Assembly: GCA_964653095.1 (NCBI GenBank)
Contig: CAZZEH010000001.1
Span: forward strand, 59,833-123,832
Reading direction: 5' to 3'
Origin: an uncultured Chitinophagales bacterium
Lineage (GTDB): Bacteria; Bacteroidota; Bacteroidia; Chitinophagales; JADIYW01
DNA: 64,000 nucleotides
Numbering within the stretch: position 1 is the first letter of the stretch; each line of letters starts with the position of its first letter. Made by a program: the position numbers and the translations under genes. The notes under the pieces are model-generated. The model saw only the letters and a list, made by a program, of their open reading frames with translations. It was not told the DNA's origin and did not search any database. Below are positions 1,749-59,525 of this stretch, piece by piece.

Positions 1749-2645
1749 ATGAAAAAATTATTCTTTATTTTCTGCTTAGTTCCGTTACTTCTTTCCTGTA
1801 AAAAGGATAATGTTATTGAAGACAAAAACATTGTCGAAGAATGTACAGAGCGAAAAGAAAAAGTATTGCTTATCGGAATAGACGGTTGTCGTACTGACGC
1901 TTTTCTGCAGATAGAACATGCTGCATTCGATTCTCTTATGGAGCAGGCTTATGTCAATTTCAATGTTGATAGAGGACCTCATACCTGGAGCGGTCCCGGT
2001 TGGGCATCTATACTGCGGGGCGTATGGCCTTCTAAACACAAACTCACAAGCAATTTTATTGTCGGACATGATTTTGGCAAGTGGCACGATATGTTTTATT
2101 ATCTGAAGCAGTATAATCCCTATTTGTATTTGGCGGCAGTGAGTAACTGGAGCGATTTCCTGAAGCTTATTACCAAAAAAGATTTTTCAAAACCTGTACA
2201 TAGTGACTTCAGGGTAACTGAAACAGCTCAGGAGTTATTAGCTGAAGAATGTGCGCCGGATGTACTGTTGTTGCATTATGATGACGTGGATTACGCCGGA
2301 CATACCACCGGGTTTTCACCTAATAACAGTCTTTATATGGAAGCTCTCCGACAGACCGGAGACTATGTAGGAGAACTGATGCAAACTATCACTGCCCGTG
2401 AAAAAAAGTATGACGAAAAATGGATGGTGATTTTAGCCACCGATCACGGCGGCAGTGGGAGAATGCATGAGTTTTTGGACAATAAAAGCTCTGTTCGCTA
2501 TGTGTTTACTGTGGTCAGAGTTCCTGGAATGAATCGCATAGAATTACCGGAAGTGGAAAATGTAGATTTGATGCCGACGATGATGAAATTTTTATCCGTT
2601 CCGGTAAGAGAAGCATGGTCACTTGACGGTAAAGCTATCTATTGA
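1749..2645 (+). CDS. alkaline-phosphatase-superfamily nucleotide pyrophosphatase/phosphodiesterase-like lipoprotein
   Basis: There is a signal peptide with a lipobox (LLLSC). Metal and catalytic motifs are GIDGCRTD, DDVDYAGHTTG and TDHGG. Confidence 0.7.
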   Translation: MKKLFFIFCLVPLLLSCKKDNVIEDKNIVEECTERKEKVLLIGIDGCRTDAFLQIEHAAFDSLMEQAYVNFNVDRGPHTWSGPGWASILRGVWPSKHKLTSNFIVGHDFGKWHDMFYYLKQYNPYLYLAAVSNWSDFLKLITKKDFSKPVHSDFRVTETAQELLAEECAPDVLLLHYDDVDYAGHTTGFSPNNSLYMEALRQTGDYVGELMQTITAREKKYDEKWMVILATDHGGSGRMHEFLDNKSSVRYVFTVVRVPGMNRIELPEVENVDLMPTMMKFLSVPVREAWSLDGKAIY

Positions 2646-2679
2646 GTTTTACATCCGACATAATAGATATTCAATGATA

Positions 2680-3170
2680 CCCCTTAGGTTTGTTATAGAT
2701 ATCCTGAAGGGATTAAATGTGTATAGAAAATTGTTGTGGTTTGGTTGGTGCGACCCTGACGGGGTCGTATGTTCCTCTTCACGGTTCGGTTATAAATATT
2801 TGACCCTTTCCGGGTCGTTTCGCTATTTGTCTTTCATTAGGTTATAGACATTTAATCTCTTTGGTGCCAGTTTATTTTACAATCCCGAAGGGATTGAATG
2901 TGTATGGAAAATGTTGTGGTTGATTGATGCGACCCTGACGGGGACGTATGTTTTTATCCAAGTTGTCGATTATAGATGTCTTTCATTAGGTTATAGACAT
3001 TTAATCTCTTTGGTGTCGGGTTATTTTACAAATCCTGAAAGGATTAAATGTGTATAGAAAATTGTTATGGTTAGTTGGTGCGACCCCGTTGGGGTCATAT
3101 GTTCCTCTCCACGTTGTCGGTTATAGACGTTTGACCCATTCCGGGTCATTTCATTATTTGTCTTTTATTC
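2680..3170. repeat. tandem array of three copies of a ~150-181 bp unit carrying GC-rich hairpins (REP/BIME-like or structured-RNA-like)
   Basis: Units start at 2701, 2882 and 3032. Recurrent hairpins are ATCCyGAArGGAT, CGACCC-N-GGGTCG and GACCC-wTTCC-GGGTC, with conserved GGTTATAGAC boxes. The array sits between convergent 3' ends. Confidence 0.85.
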
Positions 3171-3190
3171 TGCGATTTAACTTTATACTC

Positions 3191-5008
3191 TCACCCTTCA
3201 AATGCCTGTGAAGCAACCATACTCTGATAAAGTTTGTGGGAGTGCATCAGCTCCTCATGAGTGCCTGTTCCTGTAATTGCGCCTTTTTCCAAAACAATGA
3301 TTTTGTCGTAATCATAAATAGTGGAAAGTCTGTGAGCAATTGTCAGGATAGTTTTGTCTGCACTGATTTTTTTAATGAAATCCTGTACAAATTTATCTGA
3401 AATGCCGTCCAAAGAAGAAGTAGCTTCATCTAAGAAAAGCAGAGGAGCATTCTTCAGATAGGCTCGGGCGAGCGTGAGCCTTTGCTGTTGACCTATACTG
3501 AGAGACTGACCTCTTTCACCTATAAATGTTTGTAGTGTAAGGGGAAGTTTTATCACAAAATCCAATGCGTCTGCCTGTTCCAGAGCTTCGAGCATTTCGT
3601 CTGTCGTGGCTTCGGGGCGGGCATACCGGAGATTGTCTTCTACGGTACCGAAAAACAGGATAGGATCCTGAGTCACGATAGCATATAGATTTCTATAATC
3701 ATTTATCCGGATATTGTTCAGGTCATGCCCGTCTATCTGTACCATACCTTCCGGGATATCATAAATTCTGGACAGGATATGAAGCAGGGTAGTTTTGCCG
3801 CCTCCCGAAGGTCCTACAAATGCTACTTTTTCTCCTTTGCGTACGGTAAAACTGATATTTTTCAAGACTTCTTTGTCTTTAAACGAGAAAGTCAGATTTT
3901 TTACTTCCAGCTTATCTCCAAAACTCTTTAAGGAGAGATGTCCTGCTTTGTTGTCGTAGAAAGTTTCTTCTTTGAGCAGTTCGTGTATTCTCGAGAGTGA
4001 AGCGGTTCCTTTCTGGATAAAATACCAGGCATTGGAAAAAGCTTTGGCAGGAGAAATAATTTGCGAGAAAACGACGATATAGGTGATAAACACTTCGGGT
4101 GACAGCGTGCTGCTCCCCTTTAAAATAGCGTTGCCGCCAATCAGAAGAATGATGGCCACCACTGTGATACCGAGCATTTCGGACAAAGGGGAAGCCAGTT
4201 CTTTTCGTTTGAGCATTTCTGCATGGAGCCGACGATATTCCCGATTGACCGGGCGAAATTTTCCCAACAGAATATTGACTGAACTGAAAGACTGGATAAT
4301 TCTGATGCCGTGGATTACTTCGTCCACCATCATTTGCAGTACGGACAACTGGTATTGTGCCTGAAAGGAATCTTTTTTTAGCTGCTTGCCGATTTTTCCT
4401 ATCACAAAAGCAGAGACCGGAAGCAGCAGCACAACCCACAAAGTCAGATAAGGACTCATAAGAATCAGGCTGACAAGCGTGACCAATATCGTAACCGGCT
4501 CTTTGATACCCGTTTCGATAAAACTGATTATTCCGTATTCTACTTCCTGTACATCATTGCCAAAGTTTGTAAAAATTTCTCCCCGCCTTTTTTTCTTATA
4601 AAACTCAAAATCCAAAGAAAGCAGTTTGTGATAAATATTTGAACGTAAATCCCGCATCACTCCCGTACGCACCGGAATCAAAAAATATGCGGCTAAGTAT
4701 CGCGTACCATTTTTTAAAATAAACACCAATATCAAGCTAAGACATAAAACTATCAGCGCTTTTTGCTGACCGTGTACCGCCAAAACATCTACCCATCGGG
4801 CATAAAGACTGTTTACAAAAGGAATTTGAGGGAGATTACTGCTGTTAATAAGCTGGTCTTCGGGATAAAAGAGTACCTGAAGAAAAGGAATCATCAGCAG
4901 CAGAGAGAAAACAGAAAGCAAGGCAGACAGGATATTAAATATCACATTCCAACCCACAAAGCGTAGATATTTGCGGATAAGGTTCCAAAGAAGTTTGACG
5001 CTTTCCAT
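3191..5008 (-). CDS. ABC transporter, fused permease/ATPase (MsbA/lipid exporter-like)
   Basis: An N-terminal 6-TM domain is followed by Walker A GPSGGGKTT, the signature LSIGQQQR, and Walker B LLFLDEATSSLD. Confidence 0.9.
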   Translation of the reverse strand: MESVKLLWNLIRKYLRFVGWNVIFNILSALLSVFSLLLMIPFLQVLFYPEDQLINSSNLPQIPFVNSLYARWVDVLAVHGQQKALIVLCLSLILVFILKNGTRYLAAYFLIPVRTGVMRDLRSNIYHKLLSLDFEFYKKKRRGEIFTNFGNDVQEVEYGIISFIETGIKEPVTILVTLVSLILMSPYLTLWVVLLLPVSAFVIGKIGKQLKKDSFQAQYQLSVLQMMVDEVIHGIRIIQSFSSVNILLGKFRPVNREYRRLHAEMLKRKELASPLSEMLGITVVAIILLIGGNAILKGSSTLSPEVFITYIVVFSQIISPAKAFSNAWYFIQKGTASLSRIHELLKEETFYDNKAGHLSLKSFGDKLEVKNLTFSFKDKEVLKNISFTVRKGEKVAFVGPSGGGKTTLLHILSRIYDIPEGMVQIDGHDLNNIRINDYRNLYAIVTQDPILFFGTVEDNLRYARPEATTDEMLEALEQADALDFVIKLPLTLQTFIGERGQSLSIGQQQRLTLARAYLKNAPLLFLDEATSSLDGISDKFVQDFIKKISADKTILTIAHRLSTIYDYDKIIVLEKGAITGTGTHEELMHSHKLYQSMVASQAFEG

Positions 5009-5503: not shown

Positions 5504-6742
5504 ATGAAGCACCCTGCCTTTTCCATTGCAAAAAGATATCTGTTTTCGCGTAAATCAACTCGGGTAATCAATGTTATTTCCATGATTACTGCCTTTGCAA
5601 TGGCGGTGGGAGCAGGTGCGCTGATTATTGTGATGTCCACGTTTAACGGATTTGAAGATTTAGTCAAAAGTCTGTACAAAGTGTTCTATACGGATTTGGT
5701 TATCCTTCCGGCAGAGGGAAAGTTTTTCGAGATGGGGGGGTATATGCAGGAAATTTTGGATAATACAACCGGAGTGGCCGAATATTCCAAAGTGTTGGAG
5801 GAAAATGTACTGGCTCAGTATTCTGATCGTCAGACCGTAGTAACCATGAAAGGTGTGGATGAGAAATATTATCGGGTGGCAGAGGAATTGGAAGGTTATA
5901 TGTACAGTGGAGGTACGGAACTTGAATATAATGAAGTGCCGGCTGCCGTGGTGGGCGCCGGAGTGGCTCTTACACTCGGAGTAAATACCGCAGTTCCCAA
6001 TACATTTATTACTTTGTATATGCCCCGTTCCGACAAAAGCGCTTTGAACGATATTGCGAATGCTTTCCGCTCCGAAAATGTCTATGCTGGCGGAATATTT
6101 ACCGTGCAGCAGGATTTTGACTATAAATATATCATTACATCCATAGAGTTTGCACAAAATCTCATGCAGTCGGGTGCTATACTCTCAGCAGTTGAAATTA
6201 AATTAGACGGAAAAGCAGATACTAAAAAAATCAGGGCAACACTTCAGGAGACTTTGGGAGATTCTTTTCTGATAAAAACCCGTTACGAACAGAATGAAAC
6301 ACTGTACAAAGTGATGCGCACTGAAAAATGGGCGGTCTTTGCCATACTGAGTTTTATTGTATTGATTGCAGCGTTTAATATTATCGGCTCGCTGTCGATG
6401 TTAGTCATTGAAAAAAAACAAGATATTGCCACCTTGCGGGCATTGGGGGCGGATAAAAAATTAATTCGAAATATTTTTCTGATTGAAGGTATGCTGATTT
6501 CTCTGTTGGGAGCATTCACAGGTTTAGTTATTGGTACAGCGATTTGTTGGATTCAGATACGTTTTGGGTTGGTAAAAATGCCCGGAGTATCATTCATGAT
6601 GGACGCTTATCCGGTCAAGCTTATGGCAAAAGATTTTGTATTGATTATTTCAATTATCGTTTCCATCAGTCTGTGGATGGCGTGGCTTCCGGCACACCGG
6701 GCAGTAAAGAGTATGACAAATATCAGTCCCGGAGGTTTTTAG
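5504..6742 (+). CDS. FtsX-like ABC permease (LolC/LolE-type lipoprotein release permease)
   Basis: The N-terminus is KRYLFSRK. There is one TM, a large periplasmic loop, and three C-terminal TM segments with the FtsX motif AFNIIGSLSMLVIEKKQDIATLRALGA. Confidence 0.85.
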   Translation: MKHPAFSIAKRYLFSRKSTRVINVISMITAFAMAVGAGALIIVMSTFNGFEDLVKSLYKVFYTDLVILPAEGKFFEMGGYMQEILDNTTGVAEYSKVLEENVLAQYSDRQTVVTMKGVDEKYYRVAEELEGYMYSGGTELEYNEVPAAVVGAGVALTLGVNTAVPNTFITLYMPRSDKSALNDIANAFRSENVYAGGIFTVQQDFDYKYIITSIEFAQNLMQSGAILSAVEIKLDGKADTKKIRATLQETLGDSFLIKTRYEQNETLYKVMRTEKWAVFAILSFIVLIAAFNIIGSLSMLVIEKKQDIATLRALGADKKLIRNIFLIEGMLISLLGAFTGLVIGTAICWIQIRFGLVKMPGVSFMMDAYPVKLMAKDFVLIISIIVSISLWMAWLPAHRAVKSMTNISPGGF

Positions 6743-9918: not shown

Positions 9919-10923
9919 TTACGCAGTGAGGTAGTTCCTTTTTGTGTTATACATAAGCAAATATCCTCTCTTGTTTGCATTGCTTAAAAAAGAATGGCTA
10001 ACTAATATTTCCACAAATGGTTGCCTTTCCATAAATGGGCTTATTAGTTTTTCAAACCTGTTTTCCGCAATTCCTATACGCTTTGCAAATTCTGAAAAAT
10101 CGTTTTTCGCCGGATGCCCGCTTTTTTTGTATTGTACACTCTTAAAATCGTCTGAAAACAGTCCTTTGTTTAATGCAAAATCGGTATCGCCCACATGCAG
10201 TTTCGTATTTACCAAATCGTAGGCAGGACTAAGTAGATAATCACCTCTTGAAGATTCCAATAATGAAAAGTTCTTCAAGTGAGCATCACCATTTGAAAAC
10301 ATATAATTGAACACGACTAATGAAAAATACTTTTCTATTTCTACTCGCCATGCGGGAACATATTTTTGTATTAATCGCCCCGCTTCTTCATAGCTGTATT
10401 CATATTTAAAATTAGTCCCGGCATTATCTTTTGTTTTACCTGCTAACGTTGCAAAATCTTCTACGCCCAATTTACTTCCATCTTCTTTTACATCAAATCG
10501 TTTGGTGATGTATGCCGGAGAACCATTCTTAAAAAAAATCATAGCATTTTCAGCTGTTTTCAGACCGTACACCTGTTTGGCTACCTGCATAGTCAAATGT
10601 TCATTAGCAGGGACTTGATCAACTTTTTTTAAATCCCGCGGTATTGGTTTGAGTATGTATGTCCCCTGTTCTCCTTCTTTCGTTAATCTCAATATGTTTT
10701 TATCCAATAGAAAACTTAATTTTTCCTGCACCCCTGATATGGATATACGTTTGCGATTTTCCATAAACTGCTCTGCAACCTGTTCGTTATGTTGGGGTTG
10801 CTCATAAGGTAAAAGATGATTGACTTTCTTTCCATTAAACAAATTTCGCAAGCAGCTCGGGCTGTAAATAGTAAAACCTTCTGCTAAGGTTCCCGGACAG
10901 TATTTTAATTCATCTAAGTTCAT
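9919..10923 (-). CDS. hipT: HipA-family Ser/Thr kinase toxin lacking the N-terminal subdomain (HipT-like)
   Basis: The Gly-rich loop is RISISGVQEKLS. The catalytic motif is SNGDAHLKNFSLL and the Mg-binding motif is LSPAYDLVNT. At 334 aa it matches HipT size. Confidence 0.9.
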   Translation of the reverse strand: MNLDELKYCPGTLAEGFTIYSPSCLRNLFNGKKVNHLLPYEQPQHNEQVAEQFMENRKRISISGVQEKLSFLLDKNILRLTKEGEQGTYILKPIPRDLKKVDQVPANEHLTMQVAKQVYGLKTAENAMIFFKNGSPAYITKRFDVKEDGSKLGVEDFATLAGKTKDNAGTNFKYEYSYEEAGRLIQKYVPAWRVEIEKYFSLVVFNYMFSNGDAHLKNFSLLESSRGDYLLSPAYDLVNTKLHVGDTDFALNKGLFSDDFKSVQYKKSGHPAKNDFSEFAKRIGIAENRFEKLISPFMERQPFVEILVSHSFLSNANKRGYLLMYNTKRNYLTA

Positions 10924-19151: not shown

Positions 19152-20756
19152 TTAAAGTTCGTACCCCAAAGTTTTAAAAGCGTTAATCAATTGCTCCTGT
19201 GATTCTTTTTCTTTTTTCAACAGGGCTTTGAAATCTTGTTGAATCCGCTTCATTTCGGTGTCGAAATCAATACCACTGTCTTTGTCCACAAATTCAATGT
19301 ATTTACTGGGTACTAAGGAGAAATCATTGGCTACTACATCGACAAAGTTGGCAGATTTGCAAAACTCCGGCACGTTTTTATAGGATGAAGTTGGAGCTTC
19401 ATCCAGCCCAGGGGTCTGCCAGTTATGGTAATTTGCAGCAATTTTTTGAATGTCTTCTTCAGTTAGTTCCACATACTTCTTTTCATATTCGCTTCCCCAA
19501 CGTCTTAAATCCATAAACAAGATTTCTCCCGTACGGTCTCTGTAGTTTTTGGGTTTCTCCTTTGTATCATCGGTGCGTGCTTTTTTGTTTTTGTTCAAAA
19601 TCCAAAGCGTCACACTGATATCGGTGGTATAAAAAGTATTTCGTGGAATAATGATGATGGCTTCTACCAGGTCGTTTTCAATTAATTTCCTACGGATTTT
19701 ATATTCATCGCCACCACCTGACAAAGCGCCATTGGCAAGAATGAAACCTGCAACGCCATTTTCAGAAAGCTTGCTCACCATATTCAAAATCCAGCCATAG
19801 TTGGCGTTGCTTTTGGGTGGCACTTCGTAGCCCATCCAACGCGGGTCGTCCAACAATTCATTCTCTCCCCGCCAATCCTTCAGGTTAAAGGGTGGGTTTG
19901 CCATAATATAATCTGCTTTCAGGTCTTTGTGTTGGTCGTTGGAGAATGTATCTGCGTGTCTATCACCAAGATTAGCAGAAATGCCCCGAATAGCAAGGTT
20001 CATTTTTGCCAATTTGTAGGTAGTAGGTGTATTTTCCTGTCCGTAAATAGAAACTTCCTTTTTGTTTCCTTGATGACTTTCTATAAATTTGATGGACTGC
20101 ACAAACATTCCGCCTGTACCGCAACAAGGGTCATAAATAATGCCTTTGTAAGGTTCAATCATTTCTGCAATCAGGTTGACAATGGTTTTAGGTGTATAAA
20201 ACTCGCCTTTGCCTTTTCCGCTGCTTTCTTTCAGCGCAAATTGACCCAAGAAATATTCATACACGCGGCCAATAACATCTTGCCCTTTGTCTTTGAGGGT
20301 ATCAATTTCGTTGATGGTGTCAAGTAATGAAGCCAATTTGGTTTTATCAAATGCCAAACGGGAAAAATAATTGTCTGGCAAAGCTCCTTTCAATGCAGGG
20401 TTGTTTTTCTCAATGGTGTTGAGTGCTGTATCAATTTTAAGTGAAATATCGTTTTGTTTGGCATTTTTGATAATGTAGCTCCATCGAGAAATTTCTTCCA
20501 AATAGAATACATTTTTCATTGTGTAGAAATCCCTCATTTCTACATATTTCTCTTTGCCTTCGACCAAAAGTTCATCTCTTCTTTGCTCAAATTTATCTCC
20601 TGCAAATTTTAAGAAGATTAAACCGAGAACCACGTGTTTGTACTCAGAAGGTTCTACTGAACCTCTCAATTTATCGCACGATTGCCATAAAGTTTCTTCA
20701 ATTGATTTTTCTTTCTTGCCCTGAGCTTGTCGTACGAGTACTTTCTGTTTGGCCAT
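19152..20756 (-). CDS. hsdM: type I restriction enzyme M subunit (N6-adenine DNA methyltransferase)
   Basis: It has the HsdM N-terminal domain, the AdoMet motif IYDPCCGTGGM, and the catalytic NPPF (IMANPPFN). Confidence 0.95.
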   Translation of the reverse strand: MAKQKVLVRQAQGKKEKSIEETLWQSCDKLRGSVEPSEYKHVVLGLIFLKFAGDKFEQRRDELLVEGKEKYVEMRDFYTMKNVFYLEEISRWSYIIKNAKQNDISLKIDTALNTIEKNNPALKGALPDNYFSRLAFDKTKLASLLDTINEIDTLKDKGQDVIGRVYEYFLGQFALKESSGKGKGEFYTPKTIVNLIAEMIEPYKGIIYDPCCGTGGMFVQSIKFIESHQGNKKEVSIYGQENTPTTYKLAKMNLAIRGISANLGDRHADTFSNDQHKDLKADYIMANPPFNLKDWRGENELLDDPRWMGYEVPPKSNANYGWILNMVSKLSENGVAGFILANGALSGGGDEYKIRRKLIENDLVEAIIIIPRNTFYTTDISVTLWILNKNKKARTDDTKEKPKNYRDRTGEILFMDLRRWGSEYEKKYVELTEEDIQKIAANYHNWQTPGLDEAPTSSYKNVPEFCKSANFVDVVANDFSLVPSKYIEFVDKDSGIDFDTEMKRIQQDFKALLKKEKESQEQLINAFKTLGYEL

Positions 20757-59443: not shown

Positions 59444-59525
59444 TGCGGATGAAGGGAATCGAACCCCCACGCCTCGCGGCACTAGATCCTAAGTCTAGCG
59501 TGTCTACCAGTTCCACCACATCCGC
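59444..59525 (-). tRNA. tRNA-Leu (anticodon UAG)
   Basis: The hand-folded cloverleaf has a 7-bp acceptor stem GCGGATG/CATCCGC and an anticodon stem CTAGA/TCTAG with loop CTTAGGA. It has a long variable arm (TGCCGCGAGGCGT), the T-loop TTCGATT, and discriminator A. CCA is not encoded. Confidence 0.9.

Follow-up and report, generated by a model that had tools for sequence, protein, structure and literature searches.

What fills the gap between two convergent genes with three copies of a hairpin-rich repeat, and where did that repeat come from? The question is raised by positions 2646–3190 of the 64-kb stretch of DNA analyzed here (the window), a gap occupied by a tandem array. Upstream lies a gene for a type I phosphodiesterase/nucleotide pyrophosphatase-like protein (1749–2645, + strand; Pfam PF01663), and converging on it is a gene for an ABC exporter in which membrane and ATPase domains are fused (3191–5008, − strand; PF00664 and PF00005). 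For the upstream gene, the closest homologues reach just ~50% identity, sit in a different gene order and are followed by gaps of 67–92 nt, and therefore no locus-specific element is conserved at this position. The lineage of the organism is poorly sampled. Exact-protein look-up returned only Logan contigs of 1.2 kb and 3.4 kb from the same organism, and one of the two breaks off within the repeat.

The array spans 2660–3190 on the + strand and consists of three head-to-tail copies with periods of 181 and 150 nt, as delineated by Tandem Repeats Finder (score 352, period 151), a repeat search, a three-copy alignment and blastn. The repeat search recovered direct families D1–D4, each in three copies at spacings of 179–181 and 149–151 nt, and blastn aligned copy 1 with copy 3 over 139 nt at 86% identity (E 5e-39). 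Because these approaches and the hairpin coordinates agree, the array is real and far beyond chance. The copy number, the two periods and the coordinates of hairpins H1 (2701–2713, 2882–2894 and 3032–3044), H2 and H3 given by the initial annotation of this stretch all stand, as does its statement that the array fills the gap; the limits it gave do not, since the true span is 2660–3190, the lead-in is a degenerate linker and the end is flush with the stop codon of the exporter gene (3191–3193). From left to right, the array reads lead-in linker, unit 1, linker 1 (2817–2880, +), a truncated unit 2, linker 2 (2982–3030, +), unit 3 and a degenerate, linker-like tail (3158–3190, +; D3, 2786–2860 vs 3117–3191, 76%) that abuts the exporter stop codon. 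Linker 1, which carries inverted repeats I1 and I4, aligns with linker 2, delimited by the repeat search and the alignment, over 54–55 nt at 94–95% identity; some of the local duplication is thus more recent. The blastn search for additional copies suggested at the outset found none in the 64-kb window, nor did the covariance model described below. With a single locus in 64 kb, a high copy number looks unlikely in this genome.

Each complete unit is built from five parts: H1, a 5' arm, H2, a 3' arm and H3. In unit 1 (2698–2826, +) these lie at 2701–2713, 2715–2726, 2751–2767, 2790–2801 and 2802–2816, with 5/5 pairs formed in H1, 9/11 in the arm helix, 7/7 in H2 and 5/5 in H3. The parts of unit 3 (3029–3157, +) lie at 3031–3045, 3046–3057, 3081–3097, 3121–3132 and 3133–3147, and its pairing differs only in H2 (H1 5/5, arm 9/11, H2 6/7, H3 5/5). 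Unit 2 (2879–3027, +) retains H1 (2881–2895), the 5' arm (2896–2907), H2 (2930–2946) and the 3' arm (2970–2981). As previously noted, it has lost H3, with a 31-nt deletion in the three-copy alignment, and an A at 2944 breaks a pair of its H2, leaving an A.A mismatch in a hairpin that is otherwise present.

The two arms form a long-range helix, AAATGTGTATAG/TTATAGACGTTT, around H2, so that H1 and its arm are mirrored about H2 by the second arm and H3. In the repeat search, GATTAAATGTGTATA on the 3' side of H1 paired with TATAGAC(A/G)TTT (inverted repeats I1–I5) at alternating spacers of ~117/85 nt and 35 nt across the three tandem units; the layout of the relatives described below identifies the box directly before H3 (2790–2801 and 3121–3132) as the true arm partner. 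The linkers hold extra arm-like boxes. That of linker 1 (GGTTATAGACATTTAATC, 2840–2857) is complementary to the GATTAAATGTGTATA of the flanking units, and that of linker 2 lies at 2989–3006. The conserved "GGTTATAGAC boxes" of the initial annotation do exist, but they are either the 3' arm (3119–3128) or these linker copies (2840–2857 and 2989–3006). Likewise, its three hairpins are correct, but it had overlooked the helix formed by the 11–12-nt arms and the way H1 and H3 mirror each other. Its case for conserved stems with variable loops does not reach significance inside the window, where three copies are too thin a sample: of five varied positions in H2, two fall in the loop, one changes T.G to C-G and two break pairs.

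A 20-nt seed taken from the best-conserved block (GATTRAATGTGTATRGAAAA) was scanned over genomes and metagenomes. The genome collection gave seven matches, of which only L004 was later relevant; those in L003, L005 and L008 were chance matches inside coding sequence (…RVRLNVYRKDGG…). Most seed matches overall were likewise due to chance or coding sequence, and two groups extended past the seed. The first (L028, L058, L062 and L065) represents one organism with a single unit. Its members L065, L058 and L028 are identical to the window over 25/25 nt, comprising the 3' half of H1 and the 5' arm, and share the layout, with unrelated spacers; the unit in L065 is a near-perfect palindrome of 130 nt. 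The second group (L004 and L064) carries AATCCCgtaGGGATT followed by GGGATTGAATGTGTATAGAAAA. In L064, this module matches the window at 17/18 nt and lies 58 nt upstream of a 164-aa open reading frame encoding a Y1 transposase (Y1_Tnp, IS200-like; PF01797, E 1e-25). Scans of viral contigs, run with the seed and also with a pattern for the arm pair, yielded unrelated matches only, and blastn of plasmids with the window array and the L077 units yielded none. Two strings, TTATAGACA and TGTGTATAG, differ by one mismatch from the DnaA box. A reading as DnaA boxes of an origin was dropped once the link to the Y1 gene had emerged, and because the flanking genes here converge rather than diverge.

A search with the Y1 protein gave at least 7,999 relatives at E ≤ 1e-20; the majority are ~157 aa long and 68–79% identical. 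Many of these carry the JGI name "REP element-mobilizing transposase RayT". We fetched seven further members with their flanks, giving, with L064, eight independent loci, mostly from Bacteroidota; all eight proteins are 68–79% identical relatives of one query, and one paralogue of 54% identity was added. A module or full units adjoin the Y1 gene at all eight loci, in the same five-part layout as in the window. At seven of them (L071, L074, L077, L079, L081, L083 and L084), full-length units begin 1–5 nt past the Y1 stop codon, whereas the L064 gene is accompanied by partial modules, with a full unit lying 2.4 kb from it. The units are amplified in tandem beside several of these genes. The gene in L077 (end 10468) is followed by 5.8 copies of a 151-nt repeat at 95% identity, that in L071 (end 10477) by 4.9 copies of 141–144 nt, and that in L079 (end 9079) by 2.3 copies of 257 nt, a unit that includes a copy of the last ~90 nt of the gene. 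Four full-length model matches follow the L074 gene (end 10495) at irregular spacing. Units lie at 5480 in L081 (gene end 5477), at 5475 in L083 (gene end 5474), where a second unit precedes the gene (4800–4931), and at 616 and 793 in L084 (gene end 613). Orphan units away from a Y1 gene occur at L074:17969, at L064:8831 and at two sites in L065, one of them L065:527. Three of the eight Y1 genes are placed inside type I restriction–modification (R-M) operons, between hsdM and hsdS. The 54%-identical paralogue, on a Bernardetia chromid, has the same module theme upstream of its gene, in a form too diverged for the model (E 0.3–0.8) and as the sole copy in the 40 kb examined. The 64-kb window itself encodes no Y1 gene detectable by tblastn.

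To connect the window with these loci, we relied on a covariance model (R1) built from an alignment (A4) of 15 Y1-adjacent units from four genomes, with the window and L065 left out. In A4, 93.6% of cells pair, compared with 35–42% when partners are slid, and double changes occur at seven pairs. Searched over both strands of the window with filters off, R1 returned as its top three matches units 1, 3 and 2 on the + strand (37.5, 30 and 17.3 bits; E 1.9e-6, 7.8e-5 and 0.038). Units 1 and 3 matched over model positions 1–131, and the match of unit 2 extends through linker 2. Below E 0.2, R1 matched only the array units, counting their opposite strand, and the best match at any other window locus had E 0.4. 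Over 510 kb of fetched loci, the R1 matches were confined to arrays linked to Y1 genes, to the L065 group and to a small number of orphan units; ~45 unrelated loci (~350 kb) gave none at E < 0.1. When 30 units, each on its best strand, are aligned with guidance from the model, 94.3% of cells pair, compared with 37–50% when slid, and double changes fall at 18/28 pairs, counts that lean towards the modeled structure. Arm pairs covary between genomes (ATATTGGTAAC/GTTACCAATAT, ATATGGGTAG/CTACCCATAT and ATGTGTATAG/CTATACACAT). Judged by their R1 matches, the window units belong to the Y1-associated three-hairpin family. Strand preference in the window was clear (37.5 bits on + vs 9.4 on −, and 30 vs 13.6). 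An AATCC hairpin resembling H3 of the Y1 arrays had suggested that the − strand of the window corresponds to their gene-sense strand, an assignment rejected because R1 prefers the + strand.

The family unit is ~130 nt long and comprises a G+C hairpin of 5–6 bp, an 11–12-nt arm ending in TAG-AAAA, the central H2, and a complementary arm with its hairpin. Folded as single-stranded DNA (ssDNA), intact relatives form H1, an arm helix around H2, and H3 (z −5.9 to −9.4, the latter for L065). The window units retain their hairpins (three in units 1 and 3), but the arm helix does not form in the minimum-energy fold (z −1.2 to −2.5). R1 scores are also far lower in the window (17–37 bits) than beside Y1 genes (100–126 bits), and the hairpins conserved there, GTGCC and GTCCC, have sequences other than those of the window hairpins. 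Given the unformed arm helix and the low scores, the window units appear to be decayed copies. Intact relatives, being near-perfect palindromes, score and fold strongly on either strand (L065: 41 bits on one strand, 36 on the other), which leaves unit orientation partly ambiguous.

The Y1 proteins carry the motifs DH[ILVT]H, WQ and YI.NQE.HH. The partner passes the NCBIfam model for IS200 (NF033573, 64.7 bits vs a cutoff of 55) and fails that for REP transposases (NF047646, 32.4 bits vs a cutoff of 80). By motifs, length and phylum, these proteins fit TnpA-Y1 subclass 1.2, for which the published motifs are DH[IV]H, WQ and Y---Q--HH (Quentin et al. 2018, PMC6006769). That survey describes the subclass as one that "does not share IS properties", with low copy number and without typical terminal structures, and its Table 1 enters REP as "no" (PMC6006769). 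However, its automated REP search accepted only palindromes with GT[AG]G 0–2 nt on their 5' side and with ≥7 bp in the basal stem, and manual inspection was reported only for classes 2.6 and 3 (PMC6006769); under these sequence and stem rules, the search would miss the units described here. Either the units escaped that search, or the association is narrower than our eight loci suggest. We found no paper in the open-access literature that later describes these units.

We consider it likely that the window array represents a decaying orphan cluster of a ~130-nt palindromic unit whose family is tied to subclass 1.2 Y1 transposases, mostly of Bacteroidota. Enzymes of the Y1/HUH class act on ssDNA hairpins (PMC6006769, PMC8266576). 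By analogy with the TnpA of IS200/IS605 and with TnpA-REP, the Y1 enzyme would bind the hairpins on ssDNA and would nick and rejoin near the arms, and this activity could seed, spread and amplify the units. Tandem copies may have arisen by repeated nick-primed copying or by unequal recombination. The cognate gene of the window array would then lie elsewhere in the genome or have been lost, and the copies left behind would have decayed, with the arm helix gone and H3 lost from one of them. That Y1 mobilizes the units is our extrapolation from the TnpA systems (PMC6006769, PMC8266576). In their present state, the window hairpins probably serve only as 3'-end stem-loops of the two convergent transcripts. 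Against this explanation we count a window that holds neither a Y1 gene nor another unit, the divergence of the window units, the failure to see a transposition event, an empty site or a cleavage site at any unit, the ambiguity of orientation, the "no REP" entry for subclass 1.2, and the lean of model-guided counts towards the model. The REP/BIME-like interpretation offered in the initial annotation thereby gains support from outside the window, through the Y1-adjacent units at 8/8 loci and R1, rather than from the within-window argument on which it had been based.

The array could instead be the scar of a former Y1 locus, that is, the 3'-flanking array of a resident gene (an IS200-like end) that never moved and whose gene was later deleted. 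Units that start within a few nucleotides of the Y1 stop codon, as at seven of the eight loci, resemble the right end of an IS, and the array copies in L079 hold fragments of the 3' end of the gene, from which it follows that arrays grow locally beside it. The window units are + oriented and begin ~50 nt past a + gene, which reproduces the gene-then-array geometry, and their decay suits a relic as well. However, tblastn at E ≤ 10 detected no Y1 coding remnant at 2600–3200. Only 15–50 nt separate the upstream stop codon from the array, so a deletion would have needed to be exact, and orphan units occur at several other sites without gene remnants. We regard a scar as unlikely, although it deserves to be taken seriously.

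A structured non-coding RNA or a cis-acting 3'-UTR element under selection for RNA folding, for example a regulator of Y1 or a terminator or stabilizer, would account for covariation in all four helices and for the placement of units in the 3'-UTR position of Y1 genes. As RNA, the + strand of the window array folds better than the − strand (z −5.0 vs −2.6), an advantage that comes from G-U pairs, and terminator-like sites number five compared with 0.9 expected in shuffles (H2 and H3 on +, H3 on −). On the other hand, intact palindromes fold equally well as RNA on both strands (L065, z −7.2 and −8.1) and score strongly on both, as expected for an inverted repeat acting at the DNA level. Tandem amplification at 95% identity and orphan dispersal suit a mobile or repeat element better, and the linked enzymes belong to a class whose substrates are ssDNA hairpins. 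Rfam, at gathering and permissive thresholds, gave no match for the window array, for L058, L064 and L065 or for the L077 array; a match to CRISPR-DR46 at E = 4 was noise. Small RNA genes with promoters of their own were rejected as well, as a sigma-70 scan of the array gave 0 sites compared with 3.4 expected and no Bacteroidetes-type TAnnTTTG motif was seen by eye. The small structured RNA family entertained in the initial annotation consequently lacks support, with Rfam silent and intact relatives palindromic on both strands, and we consider an RNA element improbable.

Still less probable is a classical MITE mobilized by a DDE transposase through terminal inverted repeats. A palindromic, intergenic unit of ~130 nt with inverted terminal modules would suit one, and "MITE remnant", as the units had also been labeled, holds loosely in the sense of a non-autonomous palindromic element. 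Beyond that sense, the observations speak against the label: no DDE transposase with such ends was found, the sole recurrent neighbor is the Y1/HUH gene, no flanking direct repeat or target-site duplication was seen at the single-copy L065 unit, and the units form head-to-tail arrays. In the window, unit ends are masked by the tandem context. Palindromic MITEs such as the ERIC and Correia elements resemble the units in being imperfect palindromes of ~100–150 bp that are intergenic and co-transcribed. No link between these elements and a Y1 gene is known, and tandem arrays are unusual for them, in both of which they differ from the units described here. Least credible is the reading that an intergenic terminator region, belonging to no repeat family, was simply duplicated in tandem on the spot. 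This reading could draw on the lack of a second copy in the 64-kb window and of matches in plasmids and viral contigs, and on 95%-identical linkers as a sign that recent local duplication did occur, but it is already contradicted by the 25/25-nt match and common architecture in another organism, by the independent model R1 (E 1.9e-6 and 7.8e-5) and by the same layout beside Y1 genes at eight loci.

An orphan cluster of Y1-linked units leads to a broader proposition, which we put forward tentatively as a realistic possibility: subclass 1.2, a widespread and highly conserved family of ~157-aa HUH proteins published as close kin of the IS200 transposases, may have a cognate DNA partner, a palindromic unit of ~130–150 nt with three hairpins and an arm helix that is amplified in tandem and seeds orphan arrays, such that gene and units together would constitute an undescribed REPtron-like system. 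The REP/BIME–RAYT pair is the textbook case of a domesticated transposase that keeps its own population of small repeats, and its characterization comes almost entirely from Proteobacteria. In the sole systematic survey of Y1 proteins, subclass 1.2 was listed without IS ends or REPs, leaving its function open. If the units described here are the substrate of subclass 1.2, the subclass gains a testable DNA target, with hairpins, arms and a covariance model for finding units, and re-annotation would become possible for the hundreds of "hypothetical ORFs" predicted across arrays of this kind. That Y1 genes recur inside type I R-M operons would then be a concrete lead on the role of the protein. 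For the window alone, the consequence is modest, in that the gap holds a decayed repeat array and neither a gene nor a riboswitch. The family behind it, however, may be a partner, as yet undescribed, of a transposase subclass that is both large and puzzling.

Among known systems, the REP/BIME elements of Proteobacteria and their REPtrons (TnpA-REP/RAYT; Ton-Hoang 2012, PMC3333891; Corneloup 2021, PMC8266576) share several features with the units. Both are short G+C hairpins in intergenic DNA, often between convergent genes, that are arranged as inverted pairs with linkers and reiterated in tandem, with copies beside one Y1/HUH gene and others elsewhere. BIMEs are defined by modules in alternating orientation, linkers and tandem reiteration (PMC8266576), and the window array shows this organization in its inverted modules, linkers and tandem copies. 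It departs from canonical REPs of the GTAG type in that neither GTAG nor GTGG stands at the foot of any hairpin (an ATAG lies 9 nt 3' of H1 in the window unit), and units of the family lack the GT[AG]G foot and have stems of 5–7 bp, compared with at least 7–20 bp in REPs. Canonical REPs are dispersed in high copy number, whereas the window has one locus in 64 kb and copy number appears low. The unit, moreover, has five parts over ~130 nt, among them a central third hairpin and two arms that form a helix at long range. The partner, with YI.NQE.HH, is of class 1 (Y---Q--HH) instead of class 2 (Y---NP), to which TnpA-REP (REPtron/RAYT) belongs.

REPINs (Bertels & Rainey 2011, PMC3116915) similarly consist of two inverted modules that together form one long hairpin as the replicating unit, linked to a Y1 gene. 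In contrast to REPINs, the spacer here is ~65 nt long and has a conserved hairpin of its own, each module combines a hairpin with an arm that is single-stranded, instead of being one palindrome, and the units form dense head-to-tail arrays directly past the stop codon of the gene. The ends of IS200/IS605 elements and the gene-less PATEs offer a further parallel: the partner passes the IS200 model, hairpins follow right after the tnpA stop codon, and no target duplication is evident. Unlike an IS200/IS605 element, the window locus has no Y1 coding sequence in or near the array, subclass 1.2 is without IS properties (PMC6006769), multiple copies in an array, instead of one subterminal hairpin, make up the flank, and 3/8 genes lie within type I R-M operons. 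With subclass 1.2 as published (PMC6006769), the Y1 partners agree in motifs, length (~148–165 aa) and phylum; where that survey enters REP as "no", all eight loci sampled here carry a conserved structured unit.

Small IS200-like (Y1/HUH) transposase genes of TnpA-Y1 subclass 1.2, together with their unit arrays, were enclosed in type I restriction-modification (R-M) operons in three of the eight distinct loci sampled (L071 7932-18835, L077 8083-18021, and L081 2929-10477). These operons shared the gene order hsdM, Y1, array, and hsdS, with hsdR farther along. In each of them Y1 begins at or next to the hsdM stop codon, the two genes overlapping by 1 nt, overlapping by 8 nt, and lying 2 nt apart, respectively; this spacing suggests co-expression rather than random insertion.

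In L079 (9080-9860), the 257-nt array unit includes diverged duplicates of the final ~90 nt of Y1, indicating that the array grew by joint duplication of gene end and unit. Public annotations overlay the repeat arrays with "hypothetical" ORFs of up to 247 aa (L071 10461-11204, L079 9134-9316, and L081 5643-6138); these calls had no Pfam match and are probably spurious. One genome (L074) encoded two divergent subclass-1.2-like Y1 genes 4 kb apart (5781-6242 and 10001-10495), and units detected with R1, the covariance model built from Y1-adjacent units, followed the latter gene only.

Upstream of rplC, 1.4 kb of non-coding DNA (L058 876-2301, equal to L065 1-1260, from the same organism) contained two R1 units and at least six copies of a second repeated motif, TTTTCAGCAGACCC / GGGTCTGCTGAAAA. 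A marine metagenome contig (L019 1-112) contained the 20-nt scan seed, GATTTAATGTGTATAGAAAA, three times in a 46-nt tandem repeat; the architecture of the units was absent there, and any relationship is unlikely. The sole Rfam gathering-level match in the window was a tRNA gene (59444-59525, minus strand, 58 bits).

Bernardetia sp. Wsw4-3y2 (NZ_CP147018.1, L086) encodes a 54% identical Y1 paralogue, annotated as tnpA IS200/IS605. Upstream of it (19796-19968), a hairpin and arm, a central palindrome, and a complementary arm (arm') and hairpin follow the same theme as the units; 40 kb of L086 held no second copy. Its sequences are different, with GTTGC hairpins and AATATTTGTAGAA arms.
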